From the NCBI GenBank assembly GCA_041751055.1, contig JBGSYD010000001.1, positions 121,347 through 185,346 of the forward strand: DNA of 64,000 nucleotides, written 5' to 3'. Made by a program: the position numbers and the translations under genes. Below, piece after piece: positions 27,461 to 27,677 of this stretch. This DNA is from Acidimicrobiia bacterium (GTDB taxonomy: Bacteria; Actinomycetota; Acidimicrobiia; Spongiisociales; ZC4RG35). The notes below the pieces were generated by a model. That model did not search any database. It saw nothing but the letters and a program-made list of their open reading frames with translations, and had not been told where the DNA came from. Each line of letters begins with the position of its first letter. Position 1 is the stretch's first letter.

Positions 27461-27489
27461 TTGACGAAGCACCCGCCTTCCGATAGCTT
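27461..27489 (+). promoter_or_regulatory. Housekeeping-sigma promoter of the metY-metX leader
   Basis: TTGACG-N17-TAGCTT. Confidence 0.7.
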
Positions 27490-27499
27490 CCTCTCCAAC

Positions 27500-27568
27500 A
27501 TGTTTGGCACCAAGTCGACTCGAATGATGTGCGCGTGCTCCCAAGAGCCGTGCGTCCGAGTCGTGTAA
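27500..27568 (+). CDS. Putative Met/Cys-rich leader peptide [22 protein letters not shown]
   Basis: ATG 10 nt after the -10 box; ATG ATG TGC GCG TGC cluster; followed by a terminator; upstream of metY. Confidence 0.68.
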
Positions 27569-27591
27569 AGCCAGACCTACTCAAGATCGAG

Positions 27592-27624
27592 AGATCCGCA
27601 CCGGCAACGGAAGCGGATCTTTTT
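27592..27624 (+). terminator. Attenuator-like intrinsic terminator in the metY leader
   Basis: AGATCCGC-a-CCG-gcaa-CGG-aa-GCGGATCT then TTTT, 53 nt before the metY ATG. Confidence 0.78.
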
Positions 27625-27677
27625 GTGATCACAACGTTGCCGACGGTGCGAACTCTCCAAGACAGGAGAAGAGCGAC

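Follow-up and report, generated by a model that had tools for sequence, protein, structure and literature searches.

A predicted leader-peptide transcription attenuator with methionine codons upstream of metY-metX in an Acidimicrobiia genome, and related leaders with threonine or cysteine codons

The control of methionine genes is usually attributed to repressors (MetJ and McbR, for example), to Met T-boxes or to SAM riboswitches. The classical enterobacterial leader-peptide attenuators (Rfam families Trp_leader, His_leader, Leu_leader and Thr_leader) rest on another principle, in which the codons of a short ORF report the supply of an amino acid. The enterobacterial trp, his, leu, thr, pheA and ilv attenuators share with the locus described here a short ORF with end-product codons, the alternative helices 1:2, 2:3 and 3:4, an intrinsic terminator ahead of the operon's first gene, a stop codon near region 2, and a terminator that is more stable than the antiterminator. 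Unlike these attenuators, the metY leader carries Met (plus Cys) codons, has a near-leaderless start without an SD, and belongs to an actinobacterial host. Furthermore, one scaffold here serves three amino acids, and it shows no sequence or model similarity to the Rfam leaders: the Thr_leader, Trp_leader, His_leader and Leu_leader covariance models gave no match in the window (the whole analyzed stretch of 64,000 nucleotides), so that the likeness is one of mechanism only.

Within Actinobacteria, the closest described systems are the trp, ilvB and leuA leader peptides predicted by comparative genomics (PMC1262725) and the mycobacterial polycysteine sORFs (bioRxiv 10.1101/834739). The available part of the former study, Seliverstov et al. 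2005, reports that actinobacterial operons for threonine or methionine showed no conserved RNA structures in their upstream regions (PMC1262725); the Met-type and Thr-type leaders reported below would fill this gap as that part of the study defines it, in an order that was poorly sampled in 2005. The accessible text of Naville and Gautheret 2010 (PMC2965389) makes no mention of a methionine leader-peptide attenuator. The mycobacterial elements, as described in the available portion of bioRxiv 10.1101/834739, resemble the present leader in being actinobacterial leaderless sORFs that respond to a sulfur amino acid by ribosome stalling upstream of sulfur-metabolism genes, but they act on translation via SD sequestration, without a competing intrinsic terminator. 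The metY leader, in contrast to the elements in that portion of the report, has a conserved terminator with a T-run, mainly Met codons and no Cys run, and its regulatory codons pair with region 2 and not with the SD. No description of a methionine leader-peptide attenuator was found in the open full-text literature searched; supplementary lists of predicted leaders could mention one.

The leader lies between the divergent gene purU, which bounds the intergenic region, and metY (Table 1). The original prediction, made from the letters alone, had placed here a promoter, a 22-codon ORF with a Met-Met-Cys-Ala-Cys cluster and a third Cys, and an intrinsic terminator with a GCAA tetraloop and a U run, and had read them as a trp/his-like leader-peptide attenuator that annotation had missed. 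All of its coordinates agree with the sequence; the promoter arrangement and the terminator are conserved in position among relatives, the ORF is conserved as well, and the core of that reading is supported. The sORF is near-leaderless because there is no room for an SD before its ATG. An A/C-rich spacer separates its stop codon from the terminator hairpin, and the metY ATG lies 53 nt past the T5 run. An E. coli-type consensus promoter scan and a simple consensus terminator scan reported neither element: TAGCTT, which is of the TAnnnT type, matches TATAAT at only 3/6 positions, and the hairpin contains an internal loop that the terminator scan does not allow. Conservation and folding were therefore relied on instead, and what is said below on the parts and how well they are conserved, on codons kept in one frame and on mutually exclusive pairings is the result of computation.

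Table 1. Features of the metY-metX leader and its flanking genes, in window positions.
Feature	Position	Strand	Basis or remark
purU, formyltetrahydrofolate deformylase, divergent; bounds intergenic region	26510..27367	-	TIGR00655 339.6 bits, cut-off 285.95
Promoter-like -35 TTGACG (27461-27466), 17 nt spacer, -10 TAGCTT (27484-27489)	27461..27489	+	sequence reading and conserved position
Leader sORF, 22 codons, ATG 27500, TAA 27566-27568	27500..27568	+	start 10 nt past -10-like box
Regulatory codons ATG ATG TGC GCG TGC (Met-Met-Cys-Ala-Cys), codons 9-13	27524..27538	+	Met 27524-29, Cys 27530-32, Cys 27536-38
Region 1, within regulatory codons	27530..27537	+	pairs with region 2
Region 2, GCCGTGCG, antiterminator strand; partner region 1 or region 3	27547..27554	+	near-invariant in alignments
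Third Cys codon, inside region 2	27551..27553	+	sequence reading
Intrinsic terminator (regions 3 and 4), then T5 27620-24	27590..27624	+	folding and pairing conservation
Terminator hairpin GATCCGC-A-CCG-GCAA-CGG-AA-GCGGATC	27593..27619	+	outer GATCCGC 27593-99 / GCGGATC 27613-19; inner CCG/CGG around GCAA loop
Region 3, CGCACCGGC	27597..27605	+	within terminator 5' arm
Post-terminator leader: CGTTGCCGACGGTGCG (complements region 3 and loop), CTCTCC, SD AGGAGA 27664-69	27635..27669	+	MFE fold
metY, O-acetylhomoserine sulfhydrylase	27678..28997	+	TIGR01326 701.5 bits, cut-off 495.1
metX, homoserine O-acetyltransferase	28994..30088	+	NF001209 369.3 bits, cut-off 331; start overlaps metY stop by 4 nt

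How would such a leader control the operon? We consider it very probable that it is a ribosome-mediated (leader-peptide) transcription attenuator of metY-metX with Met as the main signal, and the operon would most likely be switched on when charged methionine tRNA is short. From the layout, we infer the transcription start, the translation of the sORF, the stalling, the termination and the response to Met. Transcription would start a few bases before the sORF ATG, and the leader would be translated as the RNA polymerase proceeds. When elongator Met-tRNA (possibly also Cys-tRNA) is scarce, the ribosome would stall at codons 9–13 and cover region 1, and region 2 would pair with region 3 once the latter has been made; the 2:3 helix would then block the terminator hairpin, and the polymerase would read into metY-metX. 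When the tRNAs are charged, the ribosome would reach the TAA and would cover, or have just left, region 2, which would otherwise pair again with region 1. The 3:4 terminator would form, and transcription would end at the T-run. One consideration counts against an attenuator of this kind: Met starvation would also lower the charging of the initiator tRNA, which could reduce the translation of the leader and favor termination.

The alternative pairings on which this scheme depends are found in the fold of the window's leader. The whole leader folds better than all 200 of 200 shuffles (z = −4.47), and in window folding, the 1:2 hairpin reaches −24.4 kcal/mol and the terminator −18.7 kcal/mol. The pairing of regions 2 and 3 runs over 8 bp with one bulged C, as had been predicted. 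When the 5' part was masked to 27540, equivalent to a ribosome stalled at codons 9–13, and the 3' arm was left untranscribed, the MFE contained the 2:3 helix; with masking to 27555, equivalent to a ribosome near the stop codon that covers region 2, only the terminator formed. Taken as helices alone, the full terminator has −19.3 kcal/mol versus −9.8 kcal/mol for the antiterminator. The terminator is thus the more stable of the two once fully transcribed, so read-through must be kinetic, as is accepted for the E. coli trp leader.

Relatives carry the same element. A BLAST search with the leader against 61 genomes (its own and 60 relatives) gave matches in 11, and 10 loci with a close metY share the promoter layout, with TTGAC-N17/18-TAnnnT in all 10 (as in the further leaders read) and an sORF of 21–23 codons starting 8–10 nt past the −10 box. 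The same 10 loci share the core R-M-M-C-M-A-(C/M), the block AGCCGTGCG, and the terminator GATCCGCACCGGC..CGG..GCGGATC-T5. A covariance model built from these ten metY leaders (R1) and a broader model (R2) were used for wider searches. When 151 genomes of the order were sampled, R1 detected the element in 26, with family counts of 7/19 (f1), 10/19 (f2), 7/18 (f6) and 1/14 (f11), and gave no match in families f3, f4, f5, f7, f8, f9, f10 and f12 of that sample. In a class-wide sample of 151 genomes, R1 matched 11 and R2 matched 12, every one of them inside the same order. R2 also matched 47 of 151 genomes of the source organism's own family, a count that includes three genomes whose sequences stayed unused, and 42 of 101 genomes of family f2. 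The R1 matches in relatives have E values of 1e-13 to 1e-26, far beyond chance, and every inspected full-length match with E ≤ 1e-8 sits before metY. The elements are small and unannotated, and R1 and R2 can be used for their annotation. A pattern scan of genome contigs with AGCCGTGN{30,60}CCGCACCGGC was discarded: it returned 120 loci, none with the full terminator motif, and is too loose for high-GC genomes.

A metY homologue (E ≤ 1e-100) occurs in 107 of the 151 sampled genomes of the order. The metY orthologues that are at least 81% identical to the gene in the window are all in leader-bearing genomes, from four families (f1, f2, f6 and f11); other genomes of these families hold 73–80% identical orthologues without the leader. 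There are hints here that leader and metY travel together, possibly by transfer.

Is the 2:3 pairing conserved in these relatives? In a model-fitted alignment of 32 leaders (A4), in which the 2:3 helix is not part of the fitted model, 94.7% of the cells of the antiterminator helix are paired, compared with 19–44% when the partner is slid by 1–3 columns. The antiterminator has one compensatory pair, 73:124 (G27554-C27597 in the window), for which 22 rows show G-C, 8 rows A-U and no row a broken pair. The A-U variant is restricted to family f2, and the double change is probably a single inherited event. Column 124, which lies in region 3, also keeps its terminator partner, column 151 (C-G 24, U-A 4, U-G 4). 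The terminator helix has 94.2% of its cells paired and 5 pairs in which both partners have changed; for the terminator and the 1:2 hairpin together, the figures are 91.9% and 8 pairs. (A spurious row from the minus strand was excluded from a further alignment, A3.) Because regions 2–4 are almost invariant, with region 2 varying hardly if at all in alignments A1 and A2, the covariation rests on few columns, and its support for the antiterminator is real but thin.

In four leaders of relatives, a 2-nt insertion shifts the frame of AGCCGTGCG (ACA AGC CGT GCG versus GAG CCG TGC G), and the block is kept across the two frames, which indicates that it is conserved as RNA and not as Pro-Cys codons. 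The third Cys of the window's sORF, which the original prediction had listed beside the cluster, is not a sensor codon: these four relatives read the same bases in the other frame (AGC CGT GCG), and stalling at this codon cannot favor read-through, since the ribosome would then sit on region 2. The Met and Cys regulatory codons overlap the 1:2 stem, so that part of their conservation is structural. Pair 37:69 of the 1:2 helix, on the other hand, is U-G in 23 rows, where it belongs to a Met AUG, and C-G in 8 rows, where it belongs to a Thr ACG. Met-type leaders thus accept G-U where Thr-type leaders have G-C, an argument that selection favors the identity of the codon over the strength of the helix.

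The reading frame itself provides further evidence. Across 63 distinct leaders, the sORF is open from the same aligned start in all 63, whereas frame +1 is interrupted by stops in 61. In all 63, the stop codon lies 2–15 nt (median 11) past region 2, a spacing that fits a need for the terminating ribosome to sit on region 2. Among the 30 distinct Met-type leaders, ATG triplets occur 89, 6 and 3 times in frames 0, +1 and +2, and TGY triplets 74, 33 and 29 times; in the leaders with other codon blocks described below, the corresponding counts are 89/15/2 for ACN (Thr-type) and 96/13/21 for TGY (Cys-type). These leaders are related by descent, and the triplets are thus not independent trials; the counts leave out the cut leaders L190 and L192, which have an incomplete sORF, and the loci of genomes G364 and G388. 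Each Met-type leader has 1–5 internal Met codons (median 3) and 1–4 Cys codons. The window's leader, with two internal Met codons, has the lowest number among its close kin. The attenuator reading of the original prediction agrees with the conserved ORF, the frame-specific codons, the pair counts, and the sister leaders in which the scaffold has Thr or Cys codons and precedes a matching operon.

Met-type and Thr-type leaders alike have a near-invariant sORF end, CG(T/C)GTA(A/G) (27557–27568 in the window), even though none of the three helices includes it; a stop-codon context or an extra pairing is possible.

We observed that the weaker R1 and R2 matches are sister leaders, in which the same switch carries another codon block and precedes another operon. 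Fifteen distinct Thr-type leaders, with 5–8 Thr codons (for example, sORFs MNHLAATTTTTTAPEPCG and MSAAITTTTMTTAHEPCGPVV), lie before the homoserine dehydrogenase gene hom (Pfam PF00742) in family f1 (L155–L158, L169, L170, L172–L179, L188). Most of them have one Met codon within the Thr run, which would suit hom, an enzyme common to the Thr and Met pathways. Eighteen distinct Cys-type leaders, with 4–6 Cys codons (for example, sORFs MRYRPVTVCCCACRCAAVPCR and MTYHVTHRACVCTCCCAAAPVG), lie before cysteine-synthase-like, tusA and dsrE genes. An intrinsic terminator is present in the Cys-type loci L159, L160, L180–L185, L191–L200, L203, L205 and L206, which precede either a cysteine-synthase-like gene with tusA or tusA-dsrE; in this, the Cys-type leaders differ from the translational mycobacterial ones, as the available portion of bioRxiv 10.1101/834739 presents them. 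The best family for the cysteine-synthase-like genes is TIGR01136, at 247–271 bits, below its cut-off of 344. The 30 distinct Met-type leaders precede metY, a separate metX, or an OsmC-like gene with a second metY; the last arrangement is found at L186 (G007) and L190 (G005), where a leader of the same scaffold, MTCFIANENMCAASQEPCSLPA, occurs.

The codon block is the only part that differs systematically between the operon classes, and it matches the operon product (Met, Thr or Cys). The sister leaders are thus a natural codon-swap experiment, in which one switch is combined with the codons of three amino acids. The element is real and conserved, and it is probably an attenuator of the classical type with a new specificity (Met) and with a scaffold reused for three amino acids. 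Tentatively, and as a conjecture that we would rather doubt than assume, these leaders may descend from one ancestral cassette (the leaderless sORF, the invariant GCCGUGCG / CCGCACCGGC switch and the terminator) that was duplicated within the order while its codon block was swapped, with Cys codons serving cysteine-synthase/tusA, Thr (and Met) codons serving hom, and Met (and Cys) codons serving metY/metX. The copy at metY would read two sulfur amino acids and would have displaced SAM-I in some lineages. If true, the cassette series is a natural record of regulatory specificity evolving with the switch held constant, and contains the first Met-tRNA-sensing attenuator.

In the source genome, which is metagenome-assembled in 52 contigs, R1 and R2 found the metY leader and, as the only other match, a plain terminator on contig C3; the region upstream of its hom holds no leader of the metY-type scaffold. 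On contig C10 (9194–9754), a cysteine-synthase-like gene is followed by tusA, an order also seen behind the Cys leaders of relatives. Because the contig breaks off within the cysteine-synthase-like gene, any Cys leader there is unassembled.

Could the Cys codons of the metY leader be sensors as well? The original prediction had proposed a dual sensor, in which Met and Cys codons are both stall sites and the operon answers a shortage of either. This would refine the Met attenuator and does not exclude it; Met is the consistent signal, with internal Met codons in 30/30 distinct leaders, and the Cys half of the proposal is plausible, a serious possibility that we rate a little below even. Nearly every Met-type leader has Cys as the next codon after Met-Met (the exception, L147, has Pro), the in-frame excess of TGY given above points the same way, and three codons further on, leaders have either Cys (genus g1, family f6) or Met (family f2). 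Thr-type leaders have ACN at the column where Met-type leaders have UGC, so the fold does not demand UGC, and the hom leaders, with their one Met codon among Thr codons, show that mixed codon sets occur among these leaders. Furthermore, judged by how much RNA a ribosome usually covers, stalling at Cys 27530 or 27536 would keep most of region 2 accessible. On the other hand, both of these Cys codons are inside the 1:2 stem, and they may persist for pairing or as a legacy of a Cys-type ancestor. The nearest relatives of the window's leader lack the second Cys (MMCTVS, MMCADS), the cluster of L147 has no Cys, and the genome has a separate cysteine synthase homologue, so that metY is not obviously needed for Cys.

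Translational or Rho-dependent attenuation, in which the sORF would govern whether the metY SD is accessible, and not intrinsic termination, on the model of the mycobacterial polycysteine leaders, is an improbable alternative to the Met attenuator. It draws on the leaderless-like start, on the actinobacterial host with its six WhiB-family genes, and on the mycobacterial precedent, which acts on translation according to the available portion of bioRxiv 10.1101/834739. The window MFE also places a small hairpin over the SD, and pairing of the SD recurs in 21 of 27 leaders (78%); this is barely above the 602 of 1080 shuffled controls (56%), and a hairpin sequestering the SD as a second layer of control was rejected as too weak to claim. 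The sORF is, moreover, about 100 nt from the SD and has no complementarity to it, and the strong hairpin with its T-run is conserved in the model-fitted alignment and in the loci read. The original prediction had also included a read-through pairing that frees the SD. The pairing exists (CGGCAACG, 27602–27609, with CGTTGCCG, 27635–27642) and is present in the full-length MFE, but it is not a feature of the family: complements of at least 8 nt to region 3 occur downstream in only 4 of 27 metY leaders and are lineage-specific, and the proposed freeing of the SD does not agree with the hairpin in which the window MFE puts it.

An RNA-only switch, in which the conserved blocks GCCGUGCG and CCGCACCGGC would form a riboswitch or a protein-binding attenuator with an incidental ORF, is less probable still: regions 2–4 are more tightly conserved than pairing requires, even between leaders of different operons, and region 2 keeps its nucleotides across two reading frames, but there is no Rfam match, the start and stop are fixed relative to the helices, the codon block varies with the operon class and fits its product, no single ligand or protein explains three amino acid specificities, and such an element would have no reason to hold triplets in one frame or to match the operon product.

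We return to the leader-peptide attenuator and its relation to SAM-I (RF00162), with which it would share the feedback control of methionine synthesis by premature termination. SAM-I senses SAM with an aptamer of about 100 nt and without translation, whereas the metY attenuator has no such aptamer and would read methionine itself, via tRNA charging. The original prediction had set the leader apart from the SAM riboswitches, and this proved correct: Rfam at gathering scores gave no match in the 64 kb window, SAM-I, SAM-IV and other SAM riboswitches included, and at E ≤ 10 there was no match in 27300–27750. This negative is meaningful because the same search readily detects SAM-I in relatives. 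We read the upstream regions of 20 metY orthologues from the order (74–80% identity) that had no match to the models. Ten carry SAM-I, at 56–92 bits against a cut-off of 44.4; the remaining ten comprise eight with an OsmC-like gene directly upstream and the control region further up, one that is masked, and one with a short divergent spacer. The presence of SAM-I at orthologous metY genes in sister lineages means that attenuator and SAM-I alternate at the same gene within one order, and this provides a clear example of one sensing system being exchanged for another.

The eight loci with the OsmC-like gene directly upstream of metY are L209, L210, L212, L214, L221, L222, L224 and L226. SAM-IV (RF00634) is above its cut-off in none of 151 genomes of the order, and two sub-threshold matches fall in family f12. 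In this family, the regions upstream of metY (L219 of G098 and L220 of G127; also L211 and L225) contain SAM-I (56–72 bits) followed by a Met/Cys-rich sORF, for example, MPHIPYEAVPNDTSMCRAPMAMGMCMPCSRAPR and ..SCRVCMAMRCSRATR, which is preceded by AGGAG in L220. Alternative GC-rich hairpins come next, with no obvious U-run. Family f12 may thus combine a SAM riboswitch and a Met/Cys leader in tandem.

Two further observations concern the surroundings of the operon. Directly downstream of it and convergent to metX, at 30104–31742 on the minus strand of the window, are argR (TIGR01529, 131.6 bits) and argJ (NF003802, 417.7 bits). One of the WhiB-family genes of the genome is also in the window (55356–55544, plus strand, 88 bits); among 14 control genomes, WhiB was found only in Corynebacterium glutamicum.
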